Assembly (NCBI GenBank): GCA_965207375.1
Contig: OZ242274.1
Span: forward strand, 1,472,001 to 1,536,000
DNA from: Nitrosopumilaceae archaeon
Lineage (GTDB): Archaea > Thermoproteota > Nitrososphaeria > Nitrososphaerales > Nitrosopumilaceae
DNA length: 64,000 nucleotides
Reading direction: 5' to 3'
Every line of letters begins with the position of its first letter. Position 1 is the first letter of the stretch. Below the pieces are notes generated by a model. It was not told the origin of the DNA. It was given only the letters and a program-made list of their open reading frames with translations, and searched no databases. The position numbers and the translations under genes were made by a program. Below are positions 7,880 to 56,339 of the stretch, piece after piece.

Positions 7880-7955
7880 GAACCGATTTTTGAAAAATTA
7901 TTATACTAGTGTGTTATAGTATAATCGTGAACAAATTACTTTTTAAAACAAAAAC

Positions 7956-30148: not shown

Positions 30149-33100
30149 CTGCGCCAATCAAAAAGGACATCATTGACAATCAGAAAGATATTACAATGCA
30201 AAAGATTCTAAACTCTGAAATTCCACATGCACAAAACATTGACATCTCAACTGGATACTTTGATGTTAAAGGATATGGAATGCTTCGAAACACCTTGGAT
30301 AAGGCTGCTACAGATAAATTATTTTCAATGCGATTACTCTTAGGCAAAGAAGCAATACTGCCACAGGAAGGCCCTTTTGAAAAGTATGCAAAAAAATACA
30401 ATGAATCAATTGCAGAATCATCACTAAAGACAAATCTGGATGATACAGAACTCTCCGTTAGGTCAAGAGATGACACCACTGCATTGATCAAACTATTACA
30501 ACAAGAAAACATCCATGTAAGACTAGGTGCTAGCAGATTCAACCATTCAAAATGCTACATTTTAGGAAACAATTCGGTCTTTATTGGTTCTAGCAACCTT
30601 ACGGCAGGAGGCATGACTGGAAACTATGAACTCAACGCAGGTCTGTACCAACCAGGAATTGCAGAGCAAACAAGGCAATGGTTTGACCGAATGTGGAGCA
30701 CCGCCGAAGATACAAAACAGCAGCTAATCGACGTGTTACAACGATCAAAGTTTGGTGCGCCAGCTGAGCCATACGAAGTATACATGAAGATGTTATTTGA
30801 GCGGTTTAGACCTTTGCTTGAACAGGTAGACCCCGACACTAGAGAAAACAAGACACTAACAAAGTTTCAGCAAGATGCAATACACGCTGCAATGTTTATT
30901 GTATCTGAATTTGGTGGAGTAATGATTGCAGATGCCACGGGTCTAGGCAAGACCAACATGGGAATTGAAATGGTACGACAAAAGGTGTTAAAGGAAGGCA
31001 AAAAAGTACTGCTTGTAGCACCTGCACAGGTTCTGCACAGCATGTGGACAGAAAAGCTAAAGGAGGTAGACATTAACATTCGTGAGACGCTCACCATGGA
31101 ATCTCTAGGCAGAGAGGACATCATAAACACGCTTGGCAAATATAGAAACATAGATTTGGTATTAATTGACGAATCACAGAACTTTCGTTCAAAGGGTGCA
31201 AACAGAAGAACAAACCTGATGAAATTGATGAGCATAGGAAAAAGAAAGCAGGTCATATTACTGACTGCTACACCAATTAACAATTCACTGATGGATCTAT
31301 ACTATCAGATATCTATAATATCAGGCGGTGAGGATCATTACTTTTACCGTCATACGGGAATACCTGACCTGTACAAGCACATGAGGGATGCTGCAAACAA
31401 GGATCTTGCACAGGGACTAGAAAAGATACAACAACTGTTAGATTTTATCATGGTGCGGCGCACTAGGTCATACATTAAAGAGGTATACAAAGATGACAAG
31501 ATAGGAAACAAGGCAATAAAGTTTCCAACACACGACTATTCTCCAATCAAATATGACCTTGCAGATCTATTTGGAAACATCTTTAAAAAAATTCTAGATG
31601 ATATTGGTCAGCTTACAATGGCCCCATACGGGCTTGGCAGATACGACAAGAGACTATCTGAAGAAGAACAGGAAAAGTACAGGGCAGCAGGCCATCTACA
31701 GGTCACATTATTGCTAAAGAGATTTGAGAGCAGTGTGGAGGCTGTACGAATAAGTCTTGAAAACAAGGTAAACCTGTACCGATACATCAAAAAAGTCATA
31801 GATGAGGGAAAGATTCTCCGTGTACGAGATTTTAACAAAATAATGACAAAGTGGAGCTCTGCTGAATCAAGCAAGGACCCAGACCTAGATACAGATGAAG
31901 ATGAAAAGATGAAATTCTTTCTTGATGCGATTGCAGGAATTCAAAAAGAGGAGATGGGCAAAAACTATAATGTCAAAACCCTAAGAGATGATATACAAAA
32001 AGACATGACAATTTTGGAAAACTTGCTAGATGAGGTCAAAAAGATAACAGTAGATACAAAAATAGACCGAGTAATTGAGACTATTCTGCGCGAGCAGGCA
32101 CTATATACATTTAGCAAAAAAGTTCTAATATTTACCGAATACACTGCAACTGCCAGATATGTCACAAAAAAACTGCGGGAAAAATTCCCACAAAATGTAA
32201 TTGAATGCATAACAGGCAACACAAGACAAGAAACAAGAATCAACTATATCCGAAGATTTTCACCTAATGCAAATCTGTTAGAAGATGAAACTCTAGATTC
32301 TGATGAAATTGACATTTTGGTATCAACTGAGGTCTTATCAGAGGGGCAGAACTTGCAGGATTGCAACTATGTGATTAACTATGATTTACCATGGAATCCG
32401 ATGAGAATAGTACAAAGAACAGGAAGGGTAGACAGGCTTACCAGCAAATATGATGTAATTCATACTAGGGCATGTTATCCAGACAAGGAACTAGATGGTA
32501 TCTTGAAGCTTATGGGAAAACTATTAGACAAGATCAATGTGGCAAATGAGGTAATTGGTGTAGATTCTGAAATACTAGGAGAGACGCCAAACCCGAAACA
32601 GTTTAACGGCACAGCACAGCGAATCGAAAAACTTGCAGGTAAGGGTGCAGACGAGCTAGTCAAACAACTAGAACAAGAATCAGACGTCATGCCTTCATTG
32701 TCTCCAATTAATGAGCTTGGACGATTCATTAAAGAAAAGGGAATAGAAACTGTACAGGACATTCCTATTGGACGGCGCAGTGGCAAAACAGGCCAGGATA
32801 AAAAGATGATTCTAGCATACCTGCAAGAAAAGCCTGAAAGGCGTGTATATTTTGTCCAGTATGACTTTAAGACAGATACGGCATGGGTTTCAGATGATGA
32901 CTCTGAGGCAATACGTCTTGTGTCGTGTCACAAAGATACTGCGATATATTTGCCGATGGATACTGTAGGAAATCAAGAGTCCTTTGAGATGTTGCTTGGA
33001 ATTGATCCAAAGGCACGCCTGGCCATAAAGGAAAAAAATGATGCTGTATCAACATATGTTAAAGATCTTCAGAGAAACAATCGTAAAAAACATGACAAAA

Positions 33101-33465
33101 ACATTGAAGAGATATCAAAGTTGATATTTGATGCAATTTTGGAGGGTAAAATCATCAAAGATGAAGGCAAAAAGGCAATAAACATTGTAAAGTCAGAATA
33201 CATACAGCACTGGTCTGGTGATTTAGATTCTTTATTATCTGAGTACAGACGTGATCCTGATGTTGTCAGTCTAATATCTGGAATCAAAAAAATGGGTGCA
33301 TATATTGGAATACAGCAAAAGACTGCACCCATCAAGGCAAAAGAACAAGATGCAAGAGAGTCACTTGAATTAAAATTGATAGGTGCCATGTTTATTACTC
33401 CAAAGGATGAGAAAAAGTCTGAATTGGACGAGTTCATACCTTCATCTAAACTATCTAAATTATGA
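30145..33465 (+). CDS. PLD-nuclease + SNF2-type helicase
   Basis: HSKCY...GSSNLT PLD motif; DATGLGKT, DESQ, TATP, SEGQNLQ, QRTGRVDR; ATGA-coupled to the MTase. Confidence 0.9.
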   Translation: MTAPIKKDIIDNQKDITMQKILNSEIPHAQNIDISTGYFDVKGYGMLRNTLDKAATDKLFSMRLLLGKEAILPQEGPFEKYAKKYNESIAESSLKTNLDDTELSVRSRDDTTALIKLLQQENIHVRLGASRFNHSKCYILGNNSVFIGSSNLTAGGMTGNYELNAGLYQPGIAEQTRQWFDRMWSTAEDTKQQLIDVLQRSKFGAPAEPYEVYMKMLFERFRPLLEQVDPDTRENKTLTKFQQDAIHAAMFIVSEFGGVMIADATGLGKTNMGIEMVRQKVLKEGKKVLLVAPAQVLHSMWTEKLKEVDINIRETLTMESLGREDIINTLGKYRNIDLVLIDESQNFRSKGANRRTNLMKLMSIGKRKQVILLTATPINNSLMDLYYQISIISGGEDHYFYRHTGIPDLYKHMRDAANKDLAQGLEKIQQLLDFIMVRRTRSYIKEVYKDDKIGNKAIKFPTHDYSPIKYDLADLFGNIFKKILDDIGQLTMAPYGLGRYDKRLSEEEQEKYRAAGHLQVTLLLKRFESSVEAVRISLENKVNLYRYIKKVIDEGKILRVRDFNKIMTKWSSAESSKDPDLDTDEDEKMKFFLDAIAGIQKEEMGKNYNVKTLRDDIQKDMTILENLLDEVKKITVDTKIDRVIETILREQALYTFSKKVLIFTEYTATARYVTKKLREKFPQNVIECITGNTRQETRINYIRRFSPNANLLEDETLDSDEIDILVSTEVLSEGQNLQDCNYVINYDLPWNPMRIVQRTGRVDRLTSKYDVIHTRACYPDKELDGILKLMGKLLDKINVANEVIGVDSEILGETPNPKQFNGTAQRIEKLAGKGADELVKQLEQESDVMPSLSPINELGRFIKEKGIETVQDIPIGRRSGKTGQDKKMILAYLQEKPERRVYFVQYDFKTDTAWVSDDDSEAIRLVSCHKDTAIYLPMDTVGNQESFEMLLGIDPKARLAIKEKNDAVSTYVKDLQRNNRKKHDKNIEEISKLIFDAILEGKIIKDEGKKAINIVKSEYIQHWSGDLDSLLSEYRRDPDVVSLISGIKKMGAYIGIQQKTAPIKAKEQDARESLELKLIGAMFITPKDEKKSELDEFIPSSKLSKL

Positions 33466-33510: not shown

Positions 33511-34926
33511 TTATGGAAGACGTTTGGTGCCAAAACCACACGACAAGCATGTTTCATAATGTGTGTTTATTTCAGTAGCCCATCCGCGTCCTACGTTCAG
33601 TTTATCTAGGGACTTTTTCAAATCGTAAATGTCATTGTAATGTTTTTTGTTTCTTTTGATAAGAATATCCTTGAATTCTTCGTATGGGAGATAGTTATTC
33701 TTTTTGCGATTACATGACTGACATGCCAGAACTAAATTCCACGCCTCATCACGAAATATGTACGACCATGGAATAAAATGATCCACTTCCGTATAGTTTT
33801 TTTCTAGACGTGTCCTACAATAAAAACAACAGCAATCATACTTACCATACATGTTTTGGTATTTTTTCAATACTCCTCGTTCTTTATTTGGGATCTCTAT
33901 TTTTGATACCAAATCTGGTAATGAACCGTTTGCTCTTTCCAAGAATTTTGCCCATTCTGCAATTACTGCCTTGAACAGTATGGCATGATTACGTCTGAAA
34001 AAATCAACAGCCTCGGGACGCATGTAGATCATTTGTTTATCATCGTTATAGTCATAGAAAATACTGTATTCTACCATCTCACCATCATTACCTGGAATAT
34101 TTTGAAATCTTGGCACGACCATAGATTTTCTTTTTCTATCATGACCAAATACGTTTTTGAGTATTTCGCTTTTGGCTGTGACAATGTGTTTCTTATCGAT
34201 GTGTTCAAAGTCTGCAGGAGGATCATCACCAAATACCCTGTGTAGTGCCTTGATTACCTCTGGTTGTTTCTTCTTCTTAAAGTCCTGTTTTATCTTGTAT
34301 ACGTATTCTTGATACCAATAATGTTCTAAGAATTTTTCTGCAAGATAAGAATATGGTATATTGTATGTTCGGTTGTTCAGAGAATAGTCTAGGAGAATCT
34401 TGGCTAGTGTGAACTTGTAAGTGTTATCCTTTTCACCTCTTGGTGTTATTATGGATGTAAAGACACGCCTCATGTCGTTTTCTTCTCCGAATTTTATTGT
34501 GGCCTTTTCCTCATATGGAGGAGGATCAATTATCCATGTTTGAGTATCGATGGGAACTTGTGTTTGGGGTGAGGTTAATCTCAATGCAAGTCGCCACTTG
34601 TATTTTGATTTGTTCCATACTGAGACTAACCCGTCTTTTCGAAGTTTTTCTATTACTTCTATGGTTCTATCGTAAAAATCATTGTTTCTTCTATTTGGAC
34701 CGATTAGATCTGGACTGAGCTTGATCTCATCGGCTACTGCAATTCTAAGGTAATCAAGTGTATGCCATACATGTTTTGTTTTGTATGGTACCTGTAAGTT
34801 ATCTCCTGCAGGTATCTCGTTGTTTTTGTCTAGCTCTGCTATGGTTTTGCCTTTCATGCTGAGTTGATTTAATATGGAAATACGAATTATGTCTCTTGGG
34901 ATTTTTCTTTTGATTTTAAATGTCAA
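33511..34926 (-). CDS. HNH endonuclease with TYKF helical domain and extra N-terminal domain
   Basis: NTYKFTLAK; CFYC...EVDHFIPW...NLVLACQSCNRKK. Confidence 0.88.
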   Translation of the reverse strand: MTFKIKRKIPRDIIRISILNQLSMKGKTIAELDKNNEIPAGDNLQVPYKTKHVWHTLDYLRIAVADEIKLSPDLIGPNRRNNDFYDRTIEVIEKLRKDGLVSVWNKSKYKWRLALRLTSPQTQVPIDTQTWIIDPPPYEEKATIKFGEENDMRRVFTSIITPRGEKDNTYKFTLAKILLDYSLNNRTYNIPYSYLAEKFLEHYWYQEYVYKIKQDFKKKKQPEVIKALHRVFGDDPPADFEHIDKKHIVTAKSEILKNVFGHDRKRKSMVVPRFQNIPGNDGEMVEYSIFYDYNDDKQMIYMRPEAVDFFRRNHAILFKAVIAEWAKFLERANGSLPDLVSKIEIPNKERGVLKKYQNMYGKYDCCCFYCRTRLEKNYTEVDHFIPWSYIFRDEAWNLVLACQSCNRKKNNYLPYEEFKDILIKRNKKHYNDIYDLKKSLDKLNVGRGWATEINTHYETCLSCGFGTKRLP

Positions 34927-35905
34927 TGTTTTTCTCCCATATCATATGCCCATATTTTTTGGCATTATCATAGTGTGATTCTATGTCTTGATTACCATTT
35001 GTAAGAGTCTGTGTGGAATCATCAAGTTTTTTGATTTTTTTGCCATACCACTCATTACGTCGTATCAATCTTGCAACATATTCAGGTCTAGGAAGTGAAC
35101 TTGATTTTTCACAGTTACATTTTTGACATGCAACAACTAGATTCCACATCTCGTTTTCACTCACATAGTCAAATGGTAAAAGATGATCTACGTGGATCTT
35201 TCTTCCAGCAAGGGATTGTCTGCAATAAAAGCAAGTATCAAAGAAACATAGCAAAATCTTGCGGAATTGGGACAGATTCCGAGAGGGTTTGAAACGTCCA
35301 TCTATCTTTCTTGTCAGATTTGGCATTCCAAAATTACGATTCTCAAGAAATCTCACCCAACCCAAGATTGTAGCCCTGTACAAAGGATGATAATTCTTGT
35401 GTAGTACATTTACAGTATGTTTTTTCAACGTTATTCCGTCATCAGGATCTATTTCTTTGTTGTCTGCTGAATCCTTGTACTCTTTTGTTATTTTGTATGT
35501 GTATAGTTTATCTCCATTTTTTTGAAATCTTGGAATAACATCATCAAAGCATTCTTCTGAAATTTTTTTAATACAATTACGAACCTTGTTTGGGTGTTTT
35601 TTACATATCTTTTCATAAGATGGATACGTATCTTCTATTGGAAATTCTTTTCTTATGATATCTATTATAATCGGTGGTTGATTTTTTGGACCCTGACGCA
35701 ATCTGTACTTGCATTCTTGTTTCCAATAATACTCAAAAAAATCTTGTGCTATCTCATCATAGCTTACAAACAATTTGGAATTTTGTTCATTACAATGATC
35801 TAAGAGAGATCTTGCCAAGGCAAACTTGTATGTGTTATTAAATCTATTTTTGGAACTTGGAGTGATATTTGTGACAAAAGAATCTATGATGTTGCTTTCT
35901 TTCAA
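34916..35905 (-). CDS. HNH endonuclease, paralog of 33511-34926
   Basis: NTYKFALAR; CFYC...HVDHLLPF...NLVVACQKCNCEK. Confidence 0.88.
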   Translation of the reverse strand: MKESNIIDSFVTNITPSSKNRFNNTYKFALARSLLDHCNEQNSKLFVSYDEIAQDFFEYYWKQECKYRLRQGPKNQPPIIIDIIRKEFPIEDTYPSYEKICKKHPNKVRNCIKKISEECFDDVIPRFQKNGDKLYTYKITKEYKDSADNKEIDPDDGITLKKHTVNVLHKNYHPLYRATILGWVRFLENRNFGMPNLTRKIDGRFKPSRNLSQFRKILLCFFDTCFYCRQSLAGRKIHVDHLLPFDYVSENEMWNLVVACQKCNCEKSSSLPRPEYVARLIRRNEWYGKKIKKLDDSTQTLTNGNQDIESHYDNAKKYGHMIWEKNIDI

Positions 35906-36096: not shown

Positions 36097-36969
36097 ATGG
36101 TAAATCAGTATTGTATTTTAGTAGACAAAAGAGATGTCGAAAAATTACGTATATTTCAAATTGGCAAATTCAATATGCAAATAAAAAAAATTTTAGATGA
36201 CCATGGATACAAATTTATCTGGGGGTTTCACAAAAGTCAGATATCTGATTCATGGAAAAAAATACGTAAAAATGATCGTGTGTTTTTTTCCATTCCTAAA
36301 AATAACTTTGAAATTACATCATTGGTGGCAAAGAAGCTGTTTGACAAGAAGATCGGAAAACGTCTTTGGCCTGACAACTTGGACTCACAAGAAATAACTC
36401 ATTTTTTGTTGTTTGATTCTATCCAACATGTGAATTTGTCGTTTCTTCAGACAATTGAAAATGCATCAGACGAAATCAAAATTCTATTTCCTGGAATATA
36501 TGAGCTCAAAAAAAGTTTTAAAATAAACATAGATAAATCAGACTTGCAGAACAAACATAAATCGATCCCAAAACCCTTCATCGTGCCCTCTACCAAAGTT
36601 GGGCCTGCACAAAAGGATATCTTTGAGGTTATACGATTCATACGTGATTCCACAAAGGTGAAAAAACTAAAAAAACTATACAACAACAAATGCCAAATTT
36701 GTAACTATACATTTGAGTACAAGAAAAATCACTTTTATTCTGAAGTACATCATTACAATCCTTTGAAAGCAAATGCCGATGATGAATTAGATAACATGAT
36801 TGTGGTTTGTCCAAACCATCATGCAGAATTTGATTACAACATGATTGCAATTGCTCATGATGGTACAAGTATTATAGATAAAAAAGGTAACAAAATTGCA
36901 ACAATATATTTTAAAGATGGGCACAGATTAAATATTAAAAATATTACAAACCAATTACGAGAAATTTGA
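36097..36969 (+). CDS. HNH endonuclease with putative EVE/PUA-like N-terminal reader domain
   Basis: WGF...WKKIRKNDRVFF; CQIC...EVHH...NMIVVCPNHHAEFD. Confidence 0.82.
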   Translation: MVNQYCILVDKRDVEKLRIFQIGKFNMQIKKILDDHGYKFIWGFHKSQISDSWKKIRKNDRVFFSIPKNNFEITSLVAKKLFDKKIGKRLWPDNLDSQEITHFLLFDSIQHVNLSFLQTIENASDEIKILFPGIYELKKSFKINIDKSDLQNKHKSIPKPFIVPSTKVGPAQKDIFEVIRFIRDSTKVKKLKKLYNNKCQICNYTFEYKKNHFYSEVHHYNPLKANADDELDNMIVVCPNHHAEFDYNMIAIAHDGTSIIDKKGNKIATIYFKDGHRLNIKNITNQLREI

Positions 36970-36970
36970 T

Positions 36971-39073
36971 ATGTTATTTCATGAACTTGACATCAAACCA
37001 TCTTATGATTCTAAGAAAACAGATGTATTTAATGAATTCTTTAACACTGTTTTACCACATTCAAAATACTATCGCAGATTTGGAGGGGTGTTTTCGGCAA
37101 AGCGATTTGCACTGATGGCTGAAGGTCTTCAAGAATTTATCAAGGAAAACAATGGAATGATGGAACTTGCAATAATTCCAAATTTTTCTCAGAATGACCG
37201 AGAAGCATTGATGAGAGGTGTATCTGTTGATGACATAGTTGCAAAAAATTGGATAGATGATCTGTCAAAAATCAGAGAAAAAATACTTGAGGATCATATA
37301 AGGGCGATTTCATGGATGATAGCAAATCAATATCTTACAGTCAAGATTATTCTACCAGAACATGAAGACGGTTCAATGTTTACCGAGGCCGAACTAAACG
37401 AGGTAGCAATGTTTCGACGAGAGATTGGAATTTTTTACAACAAGGAAGATAATTCACAACTGTCTTTTCACGGGATTATTGACAGGGATGATTCTGAAAT
37501 GGGTGAGATATACTCCTTGGATGTGTCAAGAAATTGGATAGAGACAGAAACAAGTAGAGTTGCATCTGATCACGAAGATTTTACAAATTACTGGAATGAC
37601 GAAACCATACAAATGGGAACACTGTCATGTAAAATAAGACCATTATCACAAAAGTTAGTAGATCATTTTAAAGTGAACTCTCCTAAAACAAAATCTGAGA
37701 TTCCGGATCTAAAAAAAATACCTGTTTTAAGAAAATATCAAATCGAGGCTATAGATGCATGGTTGGAAAATGACGGACGTGGTATATTTGAAATGGCCAC
37801 AGGGACCGGTAAGACATTTACTGCCATAGGAGGAATAAGAAAAATCCAAGAGATGGAAGACAAGTTGCTTGTTATAGTTGCTGTGCCGTATAGAAATTTA
37901 ATTGATCAATGGAAAAAAGAACTTGCAAAATGGTTTATTGATTCTATTATTCTCGAATCTGGAAGTTGGAGACGTGATTTACATGATGAGATTTCATATA
38001 TGAACAGAGCTAGAGAGAAAACATACTCCGTATTAATAACATCCCATGATCTGTTTTCAGATAATAAATTTCTTGAACAGATAGAAAATTGTCAATTTTC
38101 TACAATGCTACTAGTAGATGAGGCACATCATGTTGGTACATTTATTGGAAGAAGGGGTCTTTTACCGAATTATTCATACAGGATGGCATTATCTGCAACA
38201 ATTGAACGATATTTTGATGATGACGGTACATGTTTTTTACGAGATTATTTCAAAGGTTCAACTGGCAAATCCACGGTGATGGAATATTCACTGGAAATGG
38301 CAATCAAAGACAACAGATTATGCGGATACAACTATTACCCATTCTTTGTAGACTTAACCCTGGAAGAAATGACAGAATATCAAATACTGACATATCGAGC
38401 AGTTAGGCTGTTACATTCTAAGAAAACAGCGACACGAGAAAAAGGAGAGATGTTAATTAAAAAAAGAGCAAAAATTGTAAGAGATGCAAAAAATAAAATT
38501 AAGTGCTTAAAACAGATACTTCCACAAATCCCACACCTCAAACATCTTTTGATATTTTGCTCTGAAAATCAATTTGAGGCAATCGATGAAATACTAAACA
38601 ACCCAATAAAACACTGTGGTATAGACAGGTCACTTTTGTTTAGAAAAATCACTTATGAAAATCCACCTGATAAAAAAGACAGAACTAAAATTCTAAATGA
38701 CTTTGCAAATGAAGATTGGGACATATTATTATCAAACAAAATACTTGATGAGGGAATGGATATTCCACAGGCAAGAAGATGTATAGTTATGGCATCTACT
38801 GGAAACCCCACACAGTTTATCCAAAGACGTGGACGGGTATTACGTACATTTGCAGAACCATACAAGGACGGAAGTAGAAAAACACACGCAGATATTTTTG
38901 ATATTCTAGTGAAACCACAAATTAACAACCTTGATGATCCTGACTCCATCAAAATGGAGCTTGGTATGATCAAAAGTCAGTTATCAAGAATTACTCAGAT
39001 GAGTGAGTTGGCCATGAACAGAAAAGACTGTATGGAAAAAATCAAAGAATTTACATATGGATTTGAATTTTAA
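36971..39073 (+). CDS. pbeA: PbeA-like SF2 helicase with degenerate PLD-like N-terminus
   Basis: MATGTGKT, DEAH, LSAT, DEGMD, QRRGRVLR; helicase-small-ATPase-small gene order next to dnd. Confidence 0.72.
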   Translation: MLFHELDIKPSYDSKKTDVFNEFFNTVLPHSKYYRRFGGVFSAKRFALMAEGLQEFIKENNGMMELAIIPNFSQNDREALMRGVSVDDIVAKNWIDDLSKIREKILEDHIRAISWMIANQYLTVKIILPEHEDGSMFTEAELNEVAMFRREIGIFYNKEDNSQLSFHGIIDRDDSEMGEIYSLDVSRNWIETETSRVASDHEDFTNYWNDETIQMGTLSCKIRPLSQKLVDHFKVNSPKTKSEIPDLKKIPVLRKYQIEAIDAWLENDGRGIFEMATGTGKTFTAIGGIRKIQEMEDKLLVIVAVPYRNLIDQWKKELAKWFIDSIILESGSWRRDLHDEISYMNRAREKTYSVLITSHDLFSDNKFLEQIENCQFSTMLLVDEAHHVGTFIGRRGLLPNYSYRMALSATIERYFDDDGTCFLRDYFKGSTGKSTVMEYSLEMAIKDNRLCGYNYYPFFVDLTLEEMTEYQILTYRAVRLLHSKKTATREKGEMLIKKRAKIVRDAKNKIKCLKQILPQIPHLKHLLIFCSENQFEAIDEILNNPIKHCGIDRSLLFRKITYENPPDKKDRTKILNDFANEDWDILLSNKILDEGMDIPQARRCIVMASTGNPTQFIQRRGRVLRTFAEPYKDGSRKTHADIFDILVKPQINNLDDPDSIKMELGMIKSQLSRITQMSELAMNRKDCMEKIKEFTYGFEF

Positions 39074-39111
39074 GATTTTATCTATTTATATAACAATTGT
39101 GGACAACATAC

Positions 39112-39336
39112 GTGGTAGTCCTTAATCCGATAATTCTTGATGCTCTAGATACGTATTTCAAAGAAAAACCAGACACCCCAACAAAGATGCAGCAATTGAT
39201 TAAAAAATTATTGGAGCTTGAAAGCGTTGCAAGCGGTACCAATGAGGGAATGGACAAACTATACGATCAGGTTCTTGATCAGTTTGTTTCTGATGATGAT
39301 TTTATGCAATGGAGTAAAAAATATGTCAGCGGATAA
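39112..39336 (+). CDS. pbeB: PbeB-like small protein
   Basis: small helical ORF between helicase and ATPase; call is positional only. Confidence 0.5.
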   Translation: MVVLNPIILDALDTYFKEKPDTPTKMQQLIKKLLELESVASGTNEGMDKLYDQVLDQFVSDDDFMQWSKKYVSG

Positions 39337-41422
39337 AGAGCGTCTTTTTATTAAAAAAATAGAGATGTCAAACGTAGGACGATTTTACGGTTCGGGTCAC
39401 TCCGTAATGCTTTCTAGCTCTACAGAAAAAAATATCACCGTAATTATAGGATACAGTGGAAGAGGCAAGTCAACAATTCATGATTTAATTTATTGGTGTC
39501 TTTATGGGGAACATAAAAAACACTCTGAAGATGAGCGTCGTGGATTAGATTATGGATTAATCAATGTGGATGCATTATCAAATCTATCAAAAGGAAACAG
39601 TGTAACTGCATCCATCACATTGACACTACACAATGACAAAGAAAAAAAATATGTCCTTACTAGAGAATTAATTGCAACATATAATCGAGACTCTACCAAA
39701 CGTGAATTTAAACCTGAAAACAACTCTCAAGTTCAATCGGGAATTGATTTTGAATCAACTGTTAGACTTGAAATGAAAGATGTTTCAGGTCAATTAATAC
39801 CAGAACGAAATCCAACAATGATTAGAAATGAAATGAATAAATATTTTCCACAACATCTATCTGATTTTTTCCTCTTTGATGGTGAAAATCTGATCAAATT
39901 TCAAAATAATACCTCCTCTGATTTTATAAAAAATGGCATTACGAAAATCTCTGGACTGGGAATTTTAGGATCTCTTTCAAAATCTGCTGGAAATACTGCA
40001 ACAAAAATAAGTAATCATCTTGGTGGCAAAAGCGCCGAAGCCGCACCATATTCGAGTACCGTAAAACGATTGACAATTCAAGCAAAAACACTACAAAACG
40101 AAATTGTAGAACATAAGACAAAATCAGATCGTTTTAGAATATTGCATGATGAAATATCGGAAAAAATTAGGCAAAACAAGGAAGGCTCTAAACTAGTCAA
40201 GGATGAAAAGCAAACTAGAAGAAACAAGAGCAACGCATCTAGGGATCTTAGAGAGACAAATGACCAAATAAAAGATATGCTTTTTGAGAAAATCCCACAG
40301 TTATTGATTAGAAATACGCTTGAAAAATCAGAAGAAATTTTTGCAAGGCTAGAAGATGAGGACAAGATACCTCCTTCAATATCTAGAGGTGCAATAGACA
40401 AAATTCTAGGTTCAGATCCGCTAAGATGCGTATGTGGAAGAGAGTTTGAGAAAAATCAACATGATCCAGACTCACCTTGGATGATTTTGAACAGAATAAA
40501 GGGTACGATTATTGAAGATGATCTATCACAAGGGATATCATTAGGACGTGACTTGATCAGTAGAATAATTGACAATGCATCTACTGAAAAATCAGGCAAG
40601 GACTATTATGCTTTGATAGACAAACGCAGGGAAAAAACAAGAGAGATTCAGGAATATAATGCAGAAATTGAAGAACTTACGGCCAAAATGAAGGATCTAG
40701 AATATGAAGATATGGAGAATCTTGGCACCCTAAAACAAGAATATATGGAGAATATGCTAGAGGAAAATGGAAACATCCGCTCCAAGCAAGAAAAACTTGA
40801 TGAATTGGAAAGTACCATCAAGGAAAATGAAAAACTACAAAATGTTGCACTAGAAAAAGAAAGAATATACAGTACAGAGATAAATAAAATATCTCTGGCA
40901 AATGCAGTCAGCAAATTTTCAAAGATCTTAGAAAAGCGAATTGAAGAGATTTTTAGAGACAAGACAGAGAAAACCACAAGCGAATATTTCCTTCAAAGTG
41001 CACCACAAAAAGAAGAATTTGATCAGGTTAACATTTCTGAAAATTATGATATTGCAGTAAAGGACGTAAATAACTTAACGGCGGGTCTATCTAAAGGTCA
41101 GGCCCATGTGCTTGGTCTGTCATATGTAGCAGGAATCAGAGAAATCACACACACTAACACGTTTTTGATTATAGATTCCCCATTACACAATATATCTGGA
41201 ACAGCACGAAATGAAATATCCGAGGTATTTTCAAAGTATTTACCAAATGTTCAAATCGTACTGCTTGTAACTGATACTGAATATCTTCACAGTGATCCAA
41301 ATGGTGCCAAACCAGTAAAGGACATTTTACGAACCAATGGACGAATATGGAAAGAATATTTCATAGATGAGGTAGAAACAGATGGAATAAAGAGCAGAAA
41401 AATCACGGAGTATACATCATAA
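39323..41422 (+). CDS. pbeC: PbeC-like SMC/ABC ATPase
   Basis: GYSGRGKS, FLFDGE, long coiled coil with CVCG hook, LSKGQ, IIDSP; start at ATG 39323. Confidence 0.75.
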   Translation: MSADKERLFIKKIEMSNVGRFYGSGHSVMLSSSTEKNITVIIGYSGRGKSTIHDLIYWCLYGEHKKHSEDERRGLDYGLINVDALSNLSKGNSVTASITLTLHNDKEKKYVLTRELIATYNRDSTKREFKPENNSQVQSGIDFESTVRLEMKDVSGQLIPERNPTMIRNEMNKYFPQHLSDFFLFDGENLIKFQNNTSSDFIKNGITKISGLGILGSLSKSAGNTATKISNHLGGKSAEAAPYSSTVKRLTIQAKTLQNEIVEHKTKSDRFRILHDEISEKIRQNKEGSKLVKDEKQTRRNKSNASRDLRETNDQIKDMLFEKIPQLLIRNTLEKSEEIFARLEDEDKIPPSISRGAIDKILGSDPLRCVCGREFEKNQHDPDSPWMILNRIKGTIIEDDLSQGISLGRDLISRIIDNASTEKSGKDYYALIDKRREKTREIQEYNAEIEELTAKMKDLEYEDMENLGTLKQEYMENMLEENGNIRSKQEKLDELESTIKENEKLQNVALEKERIYSTEINKISLANAVSKFSKILEKRIEEIFRDKTEKTTSEYFLQSAPQKEEFDQVNISENYDIAVKDVNNLTAGLSKGQAHVLGLSYVAGIREITHTNTFLIIDSPLHNISGTARNEISEVFSKYLPNVQIVLLVTDTEYLHSDPNGAKPVKDILRTNGRIWKEYFIDEVETDGIKSRKITEYTS

Positions 41423-41925
41423 TGTCAGAAAAGACAACAAGAGGAACAAAAATTGACATATCTGCAAAAAAAATTGTTGCAGGATGGCCAAAAGTAGGTT
41501 ACGACGGAAACAATGAGAAGATTCGTAGTTTTTACTATAGGGAAGCTGGTACCACAAAAGACAGAAAGTCATTATTTGTACACAAAAAGCTTGCTGATGT
41601 GTTTATTTTTGCAATGACGCTTGGAAAAAGAGCAGGAATAAAAAAACCATATGCCAACAAAAAAGATAGACAAGACAGTATCGATAGTGAATACATTGCC
41701 ACTAGACCAGAGTATGTCTGGATGATGATTGCCATTGCCATAGATGAATCAAAGGGTGATCTTGAAATTTTCAGTGACCCCAAAACACGGATCATCGATG
41801 TATGTGAAGAGTATGCCAATTATGGAATAGAGTTGCTGATAGAGATGGAACAAGATGCTAGTACTTCTGATCCCTTTTCAGGATATGAAAAGAAATTTGA
41901 AGATCTACTAAAAGAACTAGAATGA
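41422..41925 (+). CDS. pbeD: PbeD-like protein
   Basis: DVFIFAMTLG...EEYANYG DndE-like helical pattern; TAATG coupling. Confidence 0.55.
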   Translation: MSEKTTRGTKIDISAKKIVAGWPKVGYDGNNEKIRSFYYREAGTTKDRKSLFVHKKLADVFIFAMTLGKRAGIKKPYANKKDRQDSIDSEYIATRPEYVWMMIAIAIDESKGDLEIFSDPKTRIIDVCEEYANYGIELLIEMEQDASTSDPFSGYEKKFEDLLKELE

Positions 41926-44135
41926 TGCAGTGCCCAATATGTAACGAGTCATTTGACACCCAGAAATTGTTTTCTGAACATCTTGAATATCATAAAAAAC
42001 AATCTTTTCTAAATCAAATACCTGAACCCGCCCAAATTCAAAATTCTGACCAGTCACAACATCGTTTGATAGATGTTACTAATTTCTTTGGAAAAGAAAG
42101 ATTTGAGACTATGGTTTTACAAAAATTACAAAACATTCAAGATATGGAAGAGTTGTTTCATAGGAGAAATTTTGTTGAGCAGGTAAAGAAACTAATTTCT
42201 AGACATCCGTTTATACATATTCCATATTTTGTAGATGATTTGTTATATGGAAATGAATCTAAATTTTTACGTAAGAAATATTACATTTCACATTCGCTGG
42301 CTCTAAAAAACACAGTGCATAAAATATTAAAGTTTGATAGAACACGATACCGTCAAAAGCAATATGATGATGCATTTGCAATGAACATGAAGATTCCAAC
42401 ATGGAATGATAAATATGATATTTTAAAAAATAACTGTGATTTTTTCAAAGACGAACTAACAGAATTGTTGTTTCTTAATGTTCTAAGATCGTTTATACTC
42501 ATAATAGTAACTGACTATGTAAATACGGGAATTTCAAAACAGGATATTATTACCAAATCTAGGCAATTACAGAATAATTATAACTTATTTAAATTCATTG
42601 ACGAACCATTAAAAAATTCTTTTACAAAGTATTTTGAAAATGCTTTTGATGAAACAGTTCTTATGCTTGTAGATGAATTAATTCTAGCAAAAATACTGAA
42701 AAAGAAATTAGGTAATTCAGAAATGATTGTGGGGAGAATGTCTATTGACAATCTCAAGGAAAGCATAATACGTGAATTAGAGTACAATAATGGTTCTCAA
42801 AGCGAATATGAGATCAAAGACAGAATAAAGGAACAATATCCGAGTTTGAAACTCTTACCCAATCTTGGAATCTGGGAGACTGCATTAAATGAACTATATC
42901 ATGAACAGATGATCAGATTTAAAACCGACCGTAACGGTAGACGTTCTTCAATAATCTTTCTAAATGAAAATTATCAGAAAATACAGCAACAGATTCAAAT
43001 GTTTGGAAGTGGTGATGTCAAGTTTTATGGAAGAAAAATAACACCTGATCAATTCATTGACGAGTTGAAGGATCTTGAGCTAGGTGACTTTAAAGATGAT
43101 GATGACCAAGTAACCCGTATAGCTGGATTGGTGCTTGCTGAATCCGTTAATCTTCAAGCCCCACACGAGCATATTTCACAATTTGACTTTTTGATTGACA
43201 TTACCGACTATCATTTTAGAGATGAACAGATCGAGACTATGAAAAAACTTGATTTCAAAATAAATTCTAGAATATTTCACTGTAAAGTAATGCTACATGA
43301 TACATTGAGCATGCAAAAATATGAACAAATTAAAGAATATCTACCAAATGGAGAACAGGCAGTTGTTATTACATTTCGGAAAATTCCATCAGATGTAAAA
43401 GCAGAATTGGAAAAAGATGATTCTATTCAGATAATTGATGAGGAAGGCATACGTATATGGGTTTCAATAACCTCAAAGATTCCATCTAGAGTAGGTTCTA
43501 TCGCAAAATTACACAAAGATCCAATCAGTGGATTAGAAAGAAGGTTGGTAAGAATCAATCGGGTCAATTATGAGGATGGATTAGCAACAGTTACCGTCTT
43601 GCCAGATAAAAATGATGCTGTGGTGCTTGTAAGGTCATTAGAGGAGATTTCATTAAATGAAGAACACCCAAAATATTTTGAGACACTAACTTGTAATTAC
43701 ATGGAGTTTTTAGATGTACTAGCCAAACTCACCACATTAGAGGATCTTGTTAACGGATTGTTTAATGTGAATATGCCTGACTCTTATCCAAAATCCACTT
43801 CGGTCACTATGTATTTTGAAAACTGTACAACAGAACTATTCCTGTCTATGCACCATAAGGACCGTATGCTTGATTGTGGTTGTCTGAGATGGCTTGAAAA
43901 CAAATTTTATTTGTGTCCACATCTGATCTATTTGATTGATTATACAGTGAGAACCAAGTATTTAGACACTTGGAATGATAAGGGCAATTTGATGAAATCG
44001 ATATTGGAGAAAATTATAATAAAAAACATATCCACTATATTGGACAGACTCGGATTAGAATCACAACAAAATGATGAACTTTACAATAAAATGAAAGAAT
44101 TCATTTTGTGTGTATATGAAACTAGAAAAGATTGA
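41922..44135 (+). CDS. C2H2-ZnF + putative Mrr-like nuclease fold + SWIM-finger protein
   Basis: CPIC..H...H; FDFLID...HCKV...AVVITF...IQIIDEEG; CGC...CPH; ATGA overlap with the pbeD-like gene. Confidence 0.6.
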   Translation: MMQCPICNESFDTQKLFSEHLEYHKKQSFLNQIPEPAQIQNSDQSQHRLIDVTNFFGKERFETMVLQKLQNIQDMEELFHRRNFVEQVKKLISRHPFIHIPYFVDDLLYGNESKFLRKKYYISHSLALKNTVHKILKFDRTRYRQKQYDDAFAMNMKIPTWNDKYDILKNNCDFFKDELTELLFLNVLRSFILIIVTDYVNTGISKQDIITKSRQLQNNYNLFKFIDEPLKNSFTKYFENAFDETVLMLVDELILAKILKKKLGNSEMIVGRMSIDNLKESIIRELEYNNGSQSEYEIKDRIKEQYPSLKLLPNLGIWETALNELYHEQMIRFKTDRNGRRSSIIFLNENYQKIQQQIQMFGSGDVKFYGRKITPDQFIDELKDLELGDFKDDDDQVTRIAGLVLAESVNLQAPHEHISQFDFLIDITDYHFRDEQIETMKKLDFKINSRIFHCKVMLHDTLSMQKYEQIKEYLPNGEQAVVITFRKIPSDVKAELEKDDSIQIIDEEGIRIWVSITSKIPSRVGSIAKLHKDPISGLERRLVRINRVNYEDGLATVTVLPDKNDAVVLVRSLEEISLNEEHPKYFETLTCNYMEFLDVLAKLTTLEDLVNGLFNVNMPDSYPKSTSVTMYFENCTTELFLSMHHKDRMLDCGCLRWLENKFYLCPHLIYLIDYTVRTKYLDTWNDKGNLMKSILEKIIIKNISTILDRLGLESQQNDELYNKMKEFILCVYETRKD

Positions 44136-45030
44136 AAATATCCTTGTATTTTGAATTCCTTGGAAGTAAATTTAGATAATCTTTCAAAAGTTCAAACATC
44201 TTTTCATGTGAATAATCTACGTAATTTTGCTCTGAATCAAGTTGTCTATAATATTGTCGTAACCAACTCTGTGTTCTTTCTATATTTATTTTGGTGTTAG
44301 GATCATCAGATATCTGCTGTTCATATTCTGTTGATTCGTTTATGGATTTGACAGAATCAGATGTGTTGTGTGCTATTTTTGAACTAGATTTATTTCTGTA
44401 CCATGGGTCATATCCTAACTTATCTAACATATATTCCCATGATTCAAATTCTGTATCATAATAGGATAGATTTATCTCAGAATATTTGTCAATATCTTGT
44501 TTTGTTGGAGTTTTCCCAATTATTTCTCGAATTCTTTCAAACTCTATTATTAGAGATATTTTGTTAGGTGGATTCATTGTTTGTGCAAAGCGAAGTATTT
44601 CGTCAATTGTTACATTAAATTCTATTTGAATATCTGTTACAGTTATTTTTTCTCTTGTTAGCATATCTTCGAATTTATTTACTGGATTATCATGTTTTTC
44701 AAAAATACATTTTGCAATCTTTTTGATAATTATGGCTCTTTGTTTACTGAGATATGACAGGTCAATTTGTGATTCATAATTGTGGTTTTTAGGATTTGAT
44801 TGATGTTTTGATTCTGGTTTTATTTTTCTTAAATATCGATAAATTATACCGTTGCAACAGTTACATAGCCATATTGTTGAATCATCCGCTGTTTTACTTT
44901 CATCCTCCAAATGACACATATTTTGTTCTATCCAAATGTTGCAAACAAAACACATACCATGTTTGGTTTTGTGTTGATTTTGTATCTGAAATTTTCTACA
45001 TTTACCTTTACAAAATTTAACAGTTTTCAC
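44122..45030 (-). CDS. Zn-finger + homing-endonuclease-associated-repeat-like protein
   Basis: N-terminal CKGKC/CFVC/CNCC; IGKTPT...FESW...LG repeat motif. Confidence 0.6.
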   Translation of the reverse strand: MKTVKFCKGKCRKFQIQNQHKTKHGMCFVCNIWIEQNMCHLEDESKTADDSTIWLCNCCNGIIYRYLRKIKPESKHQSNPKNHNYESQIDLSYLSKQRAIIIKKIAKCIFEKHDNPVNKFEDMLTREKITVTDIQIEFNVTIDEILRFAQTMNPPNKISLIIEFERIREIIGKTPTKQDIDKYSEINLSYYDTEFESWEYMLDKLGYDPWYRNKSSSKIAHNTSDSVKSINESTEYEQQISDDPNTKINIERTQSWLRQYYRQLDSEQNYVDYSHEKMFELLKDYLNLLPRNSKYKDIFNLF

Positions 45031-45441: not shown

Positions 45442-46530
45442 ATGGATGAGGAACGTGCTGTAGGCAGTGAAACGTACAGCTTTGATGCGTTACGTGGAAT
45501 CCAGGCAGGTCGTAGCTATTACGTTGCAATGTGTCCACTAAAGATAATTCCAAAGCTGTTTATCTTTAATGATTATGATTTACCACCGGACCTTCGAGCC
45601 CAACGAACTCTCAAGGACTCTAGAATCCCAGCACTAAAAAATTACATTTTACAAAACCCAAAAAACTACATATTTTCATCACTTACTGCCTCAGTTGACG
45701 GTAATATGAAGTTCATACCATCAGTAAATCTAGGTCCGGATGGTAAGCTTGGAAGACTTTACATCAACATGGATTCTCGAATGTTGATAAATGACGGACA
45801 GCACAGGCGCAAGGCAATTGAGGAGGCACTCAAAGACAAACCCGAACTTGGACATGAGACAATCTCTGTTGTCTTTTTTGAAGATTCAGGACTAGAGCGA
45901 AGCCAACAGATGTTTTCGGACCTTAACAAAAACGCCATGAAAACTACAAAATCATTGAACATACTTTATGATCATCGTGATGTATTTAGTAAATTCATTG
46001 TAGACATGACAAAAAAAATTGAGATATTCCGAGACAGGGTAGAACTAGAAAACACTACATTATCAAACCGTACAAAAAAAGTATTCACATTAAATGGTGT
46101 CACAGATGCCACAATGAGATTTCTTGGTAGCAAATCCATCAAAAAGATATCAACACAACAAAAAGAGGACATATACAAGTTTTGGAATACTTTGGCAGAA
46201 ACAATTCCAGAATGGAAATTATTACTAGAAGGTAACATTGAACCAAAGGATATACGTAAAGTGTACATTCATGGAAATACAAACATGCTCAATACGTTAG
46301 GAATTGCAGCGCATACCATCAAACAGGAATATCCAGATTCCTGGATAAAACAATTAGGTAAACTGCGTAATGTCGACTGGTCAAGACGCAACCCGATGTG
46401 GGAGGGAAACTTGCTGCAAGGTGGACGCATGGTAAAGACTACTATGGGGCTTGAACTTGGGGCAAATGTTTTATTGAGAAATTGTGGGATAAAACTGTCA
46501 AAGGCAAGACTGGGGTTTGAAAGTAAATGA
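45442..46530 (+). CDS. dndB: DNA sulfur modification protein DndB
   Basis: RAQR, INDGQHR, QQMFSDLN (DGQHR domain). Confidence 0.92.
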   Translation: MDEERAVGSETYSFDALRGIQAGRSYYVAMCPLKIIPKLFIFNDYDLPPDLRAQRTLKDSRIPALKNYILQNPKNYIFSSLTASVDGNMKFIPSVNLGPDGKLGRLYINMDSRMLINDGQHRRKAIEEALKDKPELGHETISVVFFEDSGLERSQQMFSDLNKNAMKTTKSLNILYDHRDVFSKFIVDMTKKIEIFRDRVELENTTLSNRTKKVFTLNGVTDATMRFLGSKSIKKISTQQKEDIYKFWNTLAETIPEWKLLLEGNIEPKDIRKVYIHGNTNMLNTLGIAAHTIKQEYPDSWIKQLGKLRNVDWSRRNPMWEGNLLQGGRMVKTTMGLELGANVLLRNCGIKLSKARLGFESK

Positions 46531-47960
46531 GCGTTTTTGATCAAAAATCACTAGATACAATATATACAGAAATACAACAGGTGTACCTCAACGATGAGCG
46601 CCCATGGATTTTGGGATACAGTGGAGGAAAAGATTCCACATGCATGGTACAAATCGTATGGAAGGCGTTATCTGGATTACCTGCGGAACAACTGACCAAA
46701 AAAATCTATGTGATATCTTCTGATACTTTGGTAGAGTCGCCCCAAATTGTAGACAGAATTACTGGCTCTTTGTCCAGAATAGAAAAGGCTGCCAAAGACA
46801 CGAAACTACCAATATCTACAAATTTACTGCGACCACCAATTTCTGATACCTTTTGGGTCAGAATTTTAGGACTTGGATATCCTGCACCGACTTCAATGTT
46901 TCGCTGGTGTACTGAAATGCTAAAGATTGCAAATGCAGACAGATTCATCAAAGAAAGAGTTTCTGAATATGGTGAGGTTATCGTGCTTTTGGGAACCCGG
47001 AAAAGCGAAAGTACCACAAGACAGCAAACAATGAATCTTTTAGAGATAGAAAATAGTGTATTATCACATCACAAAAAGTTTGCACAGACATATGTGTATA
47101 CTCCATTAGTTGATTTTGATACACAAGATGTCTGGAACTATCTACTTCAAGACGATAATCCATGGGGAGAAAACAACCGTGATCTACTTGCGTTGTACCA
47201 GGATGCAAATGCTGCTGAATGTCCTTTGGTAGTAGATACTAGTACACCCTCTTGTGGTAGTGGGAGATTTGGATGTTGGACATGTACCGTAGTAGACAAG
47301 CAAAAGTCGTTGGATTCCATGATTGAGAGCGGTGCAGAATGGATGGAGCCACTAGCCGAGCTACGTCACGAATTAAAACTTACACAAGAGCCTGAAATGT
47401 GGCCAAAGATACGCCAGATAACTAGAAGAAACGGACATGTTGATCTCAAAAACAATGGAACAGACTATACTCCTGGCCCTTATACTCTAGATTTTAGAAA
47501 ACAATATCTCGAAAAACTGCTTTACGGTCAGCAAAAGATACAAAGACATGATCCTGCAATGGTTCTGATTTCAGAAGACGAAATACACGAGATACAAAGA
47601 ATATGGCGCATGGAGCAGGGAGATTGGCAAAATACCGCATATGCAATATATGAAAAGGTAACAGGCATACGCCTTGAATCAATATCTGATGACAGGGGTC
47701 AGTTTGGCAGAACAGAACAAAGCCTGCTCGAGCAAGTATGCAAAAACCACGATGTACCGTACAAACTAGTAAGTAATTTGTTAAATGCAGAGTTACAACT
47801 ACAGGGTGGTTCCAGACATTCAAAGATATTTTCAAAATTAAAATCAGAGTTTTCAAAGGAATGGAGAGATGACATTGATACTATACGAAAGGAACTGTTT
47901 GAACAACGTGATTTAGAAGAGGAGGTAAAGCCAAATGCTTTTACGGAAAATAATACTTGA
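46527..47960 (+). CDS. dndC: DNA phosphorothioation sulfurtransferase DndC
   Basis: YSGGKDS, GYPAP...FRWCT, SCGSGRFGCWTCTVV. Confidence 0.95.
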   Translation: MSVFDQKSLDTIYTEIQQVYLNDERPWILGYSGGKDSTCMVQIVWKALSGLPAEQLTKKIYVISSDTLVESPQIVDRITGSLSRIEKAAKDTKLPISTNLLRPPISDTFWVRILGLGYPAPTSMFRWCTEMLKIANADRFIKERVSEYGEVIVLLGTRKSESTTRQQTMNLLEIENSVLSHHKKFAQTYVYTPLVDFDTQDVWNYLLQDDNPWGENNRDLLALYQDANAAECPLVVDTSTPSCGSGRFGCWTCTVVDKQKSLDSMIESGAEWMEPLAELRHELKLTQEPEMWPKIRQITRRNGHVDLKNNGTDYTPGPYTLDFRKQYLEKLLYGQQKIQRHDPAMVLISEDEIHEIQRIWRMEQGDWQNTAYAIYEKVTGIRLESISDDRGQFGRTEQSLLEQVCKNHDVPYKLVSNLLNAELQLQGGSRHSKIFSKLKSEFSKEWRDDIDTIRKELFEQRDLEEEVKPNAFTENNT

Positions 47961-49935: not shown

Positions 49936-50296
49936 TGTAAAGACAAGTTCTAGAACTACAAACTTGTTTGGACATCTAAAGCCCAGTCTAAATCTGACAC
50001 CTAACATTCTTGCCCGATTTGCAATTTGTCTTTCAATACAACAGAGGGGAATTCCAAATCCTGATGAATATAACAAGGATGGTTCAGAGTTTACACCTGC
50101 CGTTTTGTTCGGGAATCATGAACCATTATACCTCGCATTGATGATATCACGATTACGACAAGACGGCCTTGACCCAGAAGAGTATTTGGGTGAGATGACT
50201 AGGGCACATCTAAACCGTGGTGCAATTGCATTCAAGCAACGAGTAGATAGTCTGTCTGATTTTTACAAATTGGTAAAGGAGGCTAGATTGGGTTGA
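49922..50296 (+). CDS. dndE: DNA sulfur modification protein DndE
   Basis: TPNILARFAICLS...HLNRG; position after dndD. Confidence 0.9.
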   Translation: MKFGNVKTSSRTTNLFGHLKPSLNLTPNILARFAICLSIQQRGIPNPDEYNKDGSEFTPAVLFGNHEPLYLALMISRLRQDGLDPEEYLGEMTRAHLNRGAIAFKQRVDSLSDFYKLVKEARLG

Positions 50297-50332
50297 GTAA
50301 CTGTTTCTTTTGTGACTGCACATTAAACCGAG

Positions 50333-52344: not shown

Positions 52345-52375
52345 GATTTTTTAAGAGGAATAGAAAAAGCAATTC

Positions 52376-55955: not shown

Positions 55956-56076
55956 GCCAACTTTGAAGTTGTGTGAGTAACACAACATCAAAACCATAAA
56001 TTTTTACATCTAAATTAGAGACTATATTTCACAAACTTGATCAGCAGCCGTCAACTATATTCTTTACAAATTCTGT

Positions 56077-56274: not shown

Positions 56275-56339
56275 TGCCTTTTAACACCACTATGTATGCT
56301 TGGTCGTACTCTTGTTTATACTTTAACGCATCACCAGTA

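Follow-up and report, generated by a model that had tools for sequence, protein, structure and literature searches.

A Pbe cassette of a Nitrosopumilaceae archaeon with a degenerate HKD site in PbeA and two nuclease-like flanking genes

Which protein cuts DNA, if any does, in a Pbe defence system whose helicase has lost its nuclease site? The question is raised by a tightly packed six-gene pbe operon (36097-44135, + strand) in a 64,000-nucleotide stretch of DNA from a Nitrosopumilaceae archaeon (contig OZ242274.1 of assembly GCA_965207375.1, positions 1,472,001 to 1,536,000), the whole of which is called the window below. The operon encodes, in this order, a protein designated here g1, a PbeA-like helicase, a PbeB-like small protein, the ATPase PbeC, a DndE-like PbeD and a protein designated g6. 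The mechanism of Pbe, an antiviral system dependent on DNA phosphorothioation (PT), is disputed. In the available text of the description by Xiong (2019, PMC6459918) PbeA consists of a phospholipase D (PLD) domain, ResIII and helicase C, with pfam13091 in the H. jeotgali protein, and Pbe arrests the replication of viral DNA without cleaving or degrading it. A later comparative study (Rakesh, Aravind and Krishnan 2024, PMC10853773), in the sections consulted, argues that the HKD nuclease must cut DNA. An earlier interpretation made from the letters of the window (the sequence-only reading) had proposed that the helicase of this operon lost its own nuclease and recruits separate effectors. The analysis described here leads us, with moderate confidence, to a similar answer: the operon is a PT-linked Pbe cassette of a distinct subtype, in which the HKD site of PbeA was lost and any cutting would be delegated to separate nuclease genes.

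Loss of the HKD site in one clade of PbeA

The helicase gene (36971-39073, + strand) codes for a superfamily 2 (SF2) helicase of 700 amino acids (aa), which was recognised by the PADLOC PbeA model PDLC02707 with an E value of 1.2e-164 over residues 3-690. Pfam detected ResIII (2.2e-22), Helicase_C (2.7e-14) and DEAD domains in it. All helicase motifs are intact, as had been noticed from the sequence: GTGKT (278-282), DEAH (383-386), SAT (408-410) and QRRGR (618-622) were invariant in 36 aligned relatives.

Loci of relatives were obtained by a scan of genome contigs, which matched 592 stretches; 495 of these were confirmed and the best 80 were kept. The HKD region was aligned for the window and the 74 loci with a PbeA longer than 600 aa, the six loci with a truncated PbeA being left out. 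The pattern F-H-x-K-x-G-I...G-S-x-N was kept in 69 of the 74 loci, that is, in all 69 assessable loci that are more distant. H-x-K was missing from the other five (L001, L002, L003, L005 and L017) and likewise from the window, where the degenerate motif occupies residues 149-171 (37415-37483, + strand) and His is replaced by R149, Lys by E151 and G-S-x-N by G168-I169-I170-D171. The sequence-only reading was right about this replacement and off by one in its residue register: the segment that it quoted, FRREIGIF...FHGIID, comprises residues 148-171. Absence of the PLD residues is not a general property of canonical PbeA, as the 69 intact loci and the pfam13091 domain of the H. jeotgali protein indicate.

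Domain searches gave the same picture. PLDc_2 was not found by Pfam in the window PbeA, nor in residues 1-250 searched alone, even at E<=10. In a control with PLDc_2 at E<=0.01, nine of ten tested N-termini with an intact HxK were matched versus none of the five HxK-less ones, which bears out the claim that this helicase lost its own nuclease. Among the 120 PbeA protein clusters closest to the window protein (down to 36% identity) PF13091 was absent from the precomputed domains, and the H-x-K pair was found in none of the 119 that have the N-terminus; a few of the closest clusters retain the His, with Glu replacing Lys. Enzymes of the PLD superfamily use this His as the nucleophile in catalysis. 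The N-terminal domain is well conserved within the HxK-less clade despite the lost site, residues 1-250 containing many invariant positions, which suggests that the domain was retained for something other than catalysis. BLASTP comparison of the PbeA N-terminus with that of a neighbouring HKD-SNF2 protein (described in the last section) gave no meaningful alignment (E 0.031).

A neighbour-joining tree was constructed from 95 sequences (window, 74 loci and 20 sampled clusters; 661 trimmed columns, 100 bootstraps). The 26 HxK-less sequences (window, five loci and 20 clusters) were monophyletic in 100 of 100 bootstraps, and the clade was located beside the HKD-intact Nitrosopumilus locus L004. 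Four of the five HxK-less related loci come from metagenome-assembled genomes (MAGs) of Nitrosopumilaceae or Cenarchaeum and one from a MAG labelled 'Deltaproteobacteria'; so far the clade has been found mostly in Nitrosopumilaceae-type archaea.

The remaining core genes fit a Pbe system to different degrees. The third gene of the core (39323-41422, + strand; 699 aa when the start is taken as the ATG at 39323, the list of open reading frames (ORFs) beginning the same frame at TTG 39218) matched the PADLOC PbeC model PDLC02723 with E 3.6e-62, and the 25 best PADLOC rows listed for it were 23 PbeC and two DndD models. Pfam AAA_23 and a C-V-C motif in the middle of the protein identify it as an ATPase, for which 'DndD-like CxC-type ABC ATPase' is a better label than the earlier 'SMC ATPase' (SMC, structural maintenance of chromosomes); the consulted part of PMC10853773 makes the same correction to the original 'SMC-like' label of PbeC. 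The small ORF between pbeA and pbeC (39097-39336, + strand; 79 aa from a TTG, start uncertain) was assigned by position, PbeB being a small and fast-evolving protein. It had no match in PADLOC (E<=0.01), Pfam or NCBIfam; a weak homologue occupies the same place in L005 (tblastn, 33% over 70 aa, E 1.4e-7), and those found by blastp, also weak, were confined to L001 and L005. The 167-aa ORF in the PbeD position (41422-41925, + strand) had no PADLOC match at E<=0.01 either, and its match to NCBIfam TIGR04062 (dnd_assoc_4, 'DNA phosphorothioation-associated protein 4'; E 3.8e-8, 33.6 bits) fell below the cut-off of 74.25. When 54 ORFs from this position were aligned with 22 DndE sequences by hhalign, the result (probability 50%, E 1.6e-4, 107 columns) was consistent with PbeD being a cognate of DndE, as stated in the accessible text of PMC10853773, which treats Pbe as a CxC-type ABC ATPase-DndE system. 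The expectation that PADLOC models would recognise PbeA-D was therefore correct for PbeA and PbeC, and not for the PbeB-like and PbeD-like proteins.

The junctions within the operon are as the sequence-only reading gave them, including its ends. The TGA of g1 ends at 36969 and, after one spacer base, the ATG of pbeA follows at 36971; 23 bases separate the end of pbeA from the start of the 79-aa ORF, whose end overlaps the ATG of pbeC by 14 nt; the TAA of pbeC and the next ATG have one base in common (TAATG, 41422), and the stop of the 167-aa ORF overlaps the start of g6 (ATGA at 41922). Translation of g6 could equally well begin at another ATG of the same frame, at 41925.

A dndBCDEA module (45442-51505, + strand) starts 1.3 kb downstream of the pbe block, on the same strand and with one convergent gene between. 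PADLOC recognised DndB (1.4e-137), DndC (8e-181), DndD (8.9e-165) and DndE (3.5e-41) in 45442-50296, and the dndA position (50333-51505) is occupied by a class-V aminotransferase gene (Pfam Aminotran_5, 4.3e-82). Linkage of dnd to pbe was observed in the window and in all five related loci. By profile and gene order the core is thus assigned to the Pbe/CxC-DndE family, to which the earlier interpretation had also referred it, but it lacks the HKD nuclease, which is part of the published definition. As in PbeABCD, four genes stand in the same order, with an SF2 helicase followed by a small protein at the PbeB position, a CxC ATPase resembling DndD and a DndE-like protein at the PbeD position, and dnd genes are adjacent. 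It differs in the lost HKD/PLD residues (in the available descriptions PbeA is a fusion of an HKD nuclease with a helicase), in the two conserved extra genes at its flanks and in the lack of PADLOC matches at E<=0.01 for two of its proteins. PT-dependent antiviral protection is known for PbeABCD; here a PT connection is indicated by the linkage of the genes to dnd. That linkage to PT genes stood up in this analysis; the haloarchaeal setting given with it did not, since Pbe occurs outside haloarchaea.

The flanking genes g1 and g6

In tblastn searches of the 80 loci (E<=0.01) g1 (36097-36969, + strand) matched five, exactly the five HxK-less loci, and none of the 75 others. Every match lay directly upstream of PbeA and ended at its start, with an ORF overlap of 4 nt in four of the five loci. 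g6 (41922-44135, + strand) was found by tblastn in three loci (L001, L002 and L005), each time directly after PbeD, and in none of the 75 loci that are not HxK-less. L003 has no gene at this place, and in L017 it is taken by two HNH genes unrelated to g6, which are related (33-39% identity) to a gene pair at 33511-35905 of the window. Co-occurrence with an HKD-less PbeA, the check suggested with the sequence-only reading, was thus found for both genes; g1 is a constant companion and g6, missing from two of the five loci, is not an obligatory part. Identity across the related loci was 29-36% for g1, 39-43% for PbeA and 27-32% for g6. Four HKD-intact loci from Nitrosopumilaceae/Nitrososphaerota (L004, L006, L008 and L013) are without both genes, indicating that the pattern tracks the PbeA clade and not the host taxon.

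The gene order in the five HxK-less relatives is dndBCDE, an ORF of about 385 aa in the dndA position (between dndE and g1, at about 7700-9100 of each locus), g1 and pbeA-D, followed in three of them by g6. There dnd and pbe are joined in a single block, with up to eleven genes in the same orientation, whereas the window has two blocks in the opposite order. Although dnd of the window lies on the other side of pbe, g1 and g6 are still attached to pbe; they are linked to pbe rather than to dnd. A rough proxy for location on the same contig, namely a longest contig of equal size to that of one of the 120 listed PbeA clusters, held for at least 27 of 76 g1 clusters and at least 25 of 99 g6 clusters, with at least 13 sizes common to PbeA, g1 and g6; these are lower bounds, as many contigs are short.

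The 290-aa g1 protein was modelled by AlphaFold2 with a mean predicted local distance difference test score (pLDDT) of 88.7. The model comprises an EVE/PUA-type reader (residues 1-140 approximately) and an HNH endonuclease domain (about 185-290). A fold search of the PDB matched TagI (E 4.2e-8), the EVE-HNH enzyme VcaM4I (3.8e-5), the EVE protein MJECL36 (1.1e-4, TMt 0.59) and the 5-methylcytosine-binding N-terminal domain of McrB from T. gammatolerans (2.6e-4); the EVE protein PH1033 and YTH and ASCH domains were further matches. The C-terminal part matched EcoKMcrA and ScoMcrA, the latter appearing among the g1 matches only at E ~4e-3, over ~230 columns. Pfam HNH scored 21.6 bits, barely over the cut-off of 21.4, and residues 1-198 matched no Pfam family even at E<=10, so the EVE/PUA-like-HNH label attached to g1 earlier is upheld by the fold search and, for the reader domain, not by Pfam. 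Homologues formed 80 clusters, 76 of them near full length. C199, C202, H218, H219, N233, C238, H241 and H242 were invariant in 63 homologues; invariance of the catalytic and zinc residues of the HNH domain argues for a working nuclease. The predicted structure therefore confirms g1 as a PUA-superfamily (EVE) reader joined to an intact HNH domain. In this it is like VcaM4I and TagI (EVE-HNH and SRA-HNH enzymes), which were its best fold matches; unlike them, its reader has no Pfam family match and it is the first gene of a Pbe operon instead of standing alone. Assignment of g1 to the NCBIfam family 'phosphorothioated DNA-binding restriction endonuclease' was rejected, as the match covered the HNH part only and reached 32 bits versus a cut-off of 180. 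The searches revealed no sign of a sulfur-binding domain (SBD) in g1 or g6.

The 737-aa g6 protein (AlphaFold2 model, mean pLDDT 85.6) begins with an N-terminal C2H2 finger. A long region of helices and winged helices follows, and after it come an alpha/beta domain, which is conserved, a beta-barrel, a finger of the pattern CxC...CxH and the C-terminal helices. Residues are numbered below as in the database copy P0121, which begins at the ATG at 41925. The family is small, with 162 representatives among 1.84 billion clusters, and none of the 99 homologous clusters carried a Pfam domain or an informative name. Three labels had been given to this protein. SWIM was assigned by the pattern C-x-C-x10-C-x-H (43875-43922, + strand) alone: C651, C653, C664 and H666 were invariant in all 69 aligned homologues, and the Pfam SWIM profile matched one of 57 homologues, with E 0.74. 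The C2H2 finger also held, with a weak Pfam match in the window protein (E 0.003); 23 of 57 homologues matched, many of the distant ones lacking the N-terminal end.

The third label, Mrr-like, found weak support. The central domain (43023-43472, + strand) contains a D...HxK motif whose residues D421, H452 and K454 were each conserved in more than 90% of the homologues. The Mrr_cat profile of Pfam matched none of 57 homologues over its cut-off and did not match g6 of the window at all; five of the 57 gave sub-threshold matches (12-15 bits versus 21), which lay in the same region, on the strand segment with H452-x-K454, and ended at about position 112-115 of the 115-position profile. The whole-chain fold search of the PDB gave nothing at E<=0.001, and the best rows were FokI (E 2.3e-3, probability 0.82), MspJI (E 0.027, probability 0.99), Nt.BspD6I and winged-helix proteins. 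In PD-(D/E)xK nucleases the position held by His in g6 is usually E or Q. The domain probably has the fold of Mrr/FokI-type nucleases, its D...HxK motif being unusual; this assignment is a weak one, drawn from the model and the conserved columns, and the activity is putative. The central domain thus shares weak fold and profile similarity with Mrr, MspJI and FokI nucleases, and g6 has the invariant CxC...CxH of SWIM proteins, but g6 stays under every curated threshold and has the unusual His.

Other searches with g6 gave no lead. The alignment profile produced two chance-level rows against PDB sequences (E 0.33 and 1.8), ESM Atlas look-ups with the central part and with the whole protein gave no usable match, and a domain scan of distant relatives, which correspond to the C-terminal half only, returned weak helix-turn-helix (HTH) and KOW matches. 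Among the homologues, PDB sequences, ESM Atlas and cluster searches no characterised protein with the whole architecture of g6 was found.

Where the cassette may cut DNA

The reading that we regard as probable can be put as follows. The HKD nuclease site would have been lost at the base of one PbeA clade, the domain itself being kept, and the cassette of this clade has a translationally coupled EVE-HNH gene upstream in every locus seen and, often, a gene for a zinc-finger/winged-helix/Mrr-like/SWIM protein downstream. PbeC and PbeD would scan DNA and PbeA would translocate, as proposed for Pbe in the consulted sections of PMC6459918 and PMC10853773. Cutting of DNA, if any, would be done in trans by the HNH domain of g1, possibly also by the Mrr-like domain of g6, and the EVE domain of g1 would add the read-out of a DNA modification. 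We infer the recruitment of separate effectors by the helicase/ATPase core from the conserved gene order. Such a mechanism would resemble McrBC-type systems, with a motor and a separate nuclease cooperating. McrBC combines a motor that has a modification reader with a separate nuclease subunit. As a working analogy, the cassette would share with it translocation driven by nucleoside triphosphates and cutting by another polypeptide, and the reader of g1 resembles the N-terminal domain of T. gammatolerans McrB, but the motor proteins are non-homologous.

Several points weigh against delegated cutting. All co-occurrence falls in one clade and hence represents one evolutionary event, in which function and hitch-hiking are inseparable, and the related loci with flanks number only five. 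g6 is dispensable or exchangeable, with no gene in its place in L003 and a replacement in L017, and its assignment as a nuclease is weak (no fold match at E<=0.001, Mrr_cat below threshold, His at the E/Q position). According to the accessible part of PMC6459918, viral DNA was not cleaved by a Pbe system that does have the HKD site; Pbe may need no nuclease. Finally, EVE-HNH enzymes such as VcaM4I act alone as modification-dependent restriction enzymes, according to the available text of PMC7897488.

The main rival explanation starts from this last point. g1, and perhaps g6, would be self-contained, modification-dependent (type IV-like) restriction enzymes of a defence island that travel with dnd and pbe, the loss of HKD being unrelated and this Pbe clade non-cutting. 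This is a serious possibility, although on the whole a doubtful one. The architecture of g1 is that of the stand-alone enzymes TagI and VcaM4I, and the operon lies in a dense defence island, in which AlbA_2, GmrSD and two further HNH genes are found besides the pair of a type IIG-like methylase and an HKD-SNF2 protein. The loss or replacement of g6 in two of five relatives also suits autonomous enzymes, as do the many different nucleases found beside Dnd genes (PMC10853773, in the sections at hand) and the absence of DNA cleavage in the portion of PMC6459918 already cited. On the other hand, g1 coincides exactly with the HxK-less clade (5/5 versus 0/75), its junctions with pbeA consist of 1 nt or of 4-nt start/stop overlaps, and its position is kept down to ~30% identity. 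Moreover, the move of dnd left g1 and g6 beside pbe.

Delegated cutting can also be given a stronger form, which we offer as tentative and rather unlikely in its details. The Pbe motor would then be a pure ATP-driven sensor/translocase licensing two exchangeable trans nucleases, with the EVE-HNH protein reading a DNA modification (PT self-marking plus recognition of modified invaders), or else the EVE domain would be a new PT reader. If true, either would provide the first direct handle on the site of DNA cutting in Pbe defence.

It is improbable that the cassette does not cut at all. In this case viral replication would be halted by the HxK-less PbeA, working as a translocase or as a roadblock, and g1 and g6 would be modification readers, regulators or anchors acting through their EVE, zinc-finger, winged-helix and SWIM modules. 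The arrest of viral DNA replication without degradation in the consulted text of PMC6459918 would be explained in this way, and the number of DNA-binding-type modules and the atypical D...HxK of g6 would suit it, but in g1 the residues for catalysis and zinc binding of the HNH domain did not vary among the 63 homologues, and each of D421, H452 and K454 of g6 is conserved above 90%. That the N-terminal domain of PbeA is still an active phosphodiesterase using other residues, no nuclease having been lost, is scarcely credible in spite of its conserved residues 1-250 and of the Lys or His that some clade members retain near the old motif, because the catalytic nucleophile of the PLD superfamily is the His, no clade member has the H-x-K pair and various residues (R, K, Q, L, V, T) occupy the old-motif columns, which is not the pattern of an active site.

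Whichever nuclease cuts, if any does, the locus is a real, recurrent and undescribed variant of the known Pbe system, and its standing as a candidate for a new PT-defence subtype was strengthened: HKD is present in canonical PbeA, the flanking genes recur with its loss and the core passes Pbe models in PbeA and PbeC. A search that covered passages of main texts found no publication that describes a PbeA clade without HKD, or its g1 and g6 partners; supplements, which lay outside it, could list such neighbourhoods. In the accessible text of PMC10853773 SWIM, PUA and Mrr do not occur, and 'inactive' is not applied to PbeA in the 12 of 20 matching places examined; the available passages of the literature on sponge Thaumarchaeota mention only dnd genes. 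As the PADLOC PbeA models already fit the clade, automated annotation would call it an ordinary Pbe system. In the dispute between replication arrest and HKD cutting, a clade without the HKD site and with separate nuclease genes is a natural separation-of-function case, in which motor/sensor and cutter can be mutated independently. The locus also gives a small uncharacterised protein family, that of g6, a clear genomic partner, and adds ammonia-oxidising archaea, both oceanic and from sponges, to the range of PT-linked defence.

The surrounding defence island

Upstream of g1 and divergent from it are two overlapping paralogous genes with C-terminal HNH domains and N-terminal regions of no assigned family (33511-34926 and 34916-35905, - strand; 471 and 329 aa). 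They are the pair whose relatives follow PbeD in L017, and may serve this cassette as an alternative accessory module. Further upstream, a gene for a type IIG-like methylase of the Eco57I/MmeI type (26129-30148, + strand; 1339 aa) overlaps the start of that for an HKD(PLDc_2)-SNF2 helicase (30145-33465, + strand; 1106 aa), which is DrmD-like and matched the PADLOC model 'C3a139 HKD+Snf2' (E 1.7e-53). These two genes constitute a second, separate defence pair, whose HKD domain, unlike that of PbeA, is seen by Pfam.

The convergent gene between the pbe block and dndB (44122-45030, - strand; 302 aa) overlaps g6 by 14 nt. The N-terminus of its product is rich in Cys, Pfam detected a 'homing endonuclease associated repeat' (E 2.2e-6) in it, and the gene had no homologue in the 80 loci. 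Directly after dndA the island is extended by two genes (51562-54172, + strand), one with a Schlafen/AlbA_2 domain and the other for a type IV restriction enzyme of the GmrSD type (DUF262/DUF1524).

The G+C content of the window is 32-42%, and no tRNA gene was found in its 64,000 nt. The island is bracketed by transposase genes located within 4031-24348 and 54458-59006, namely IS66-type (4031-5068 and 54458-55633), DDE_3, IS110-type and DDE_Tnp_4. Upstream there is also a replication set consisting of a D5-like primase-helicase, a family B DNA polymerase, a helicase and the large and small primase subunits, accompanied by two DNA methylases. Together with the bracketing transposases this set suggests an integrated mobile element.

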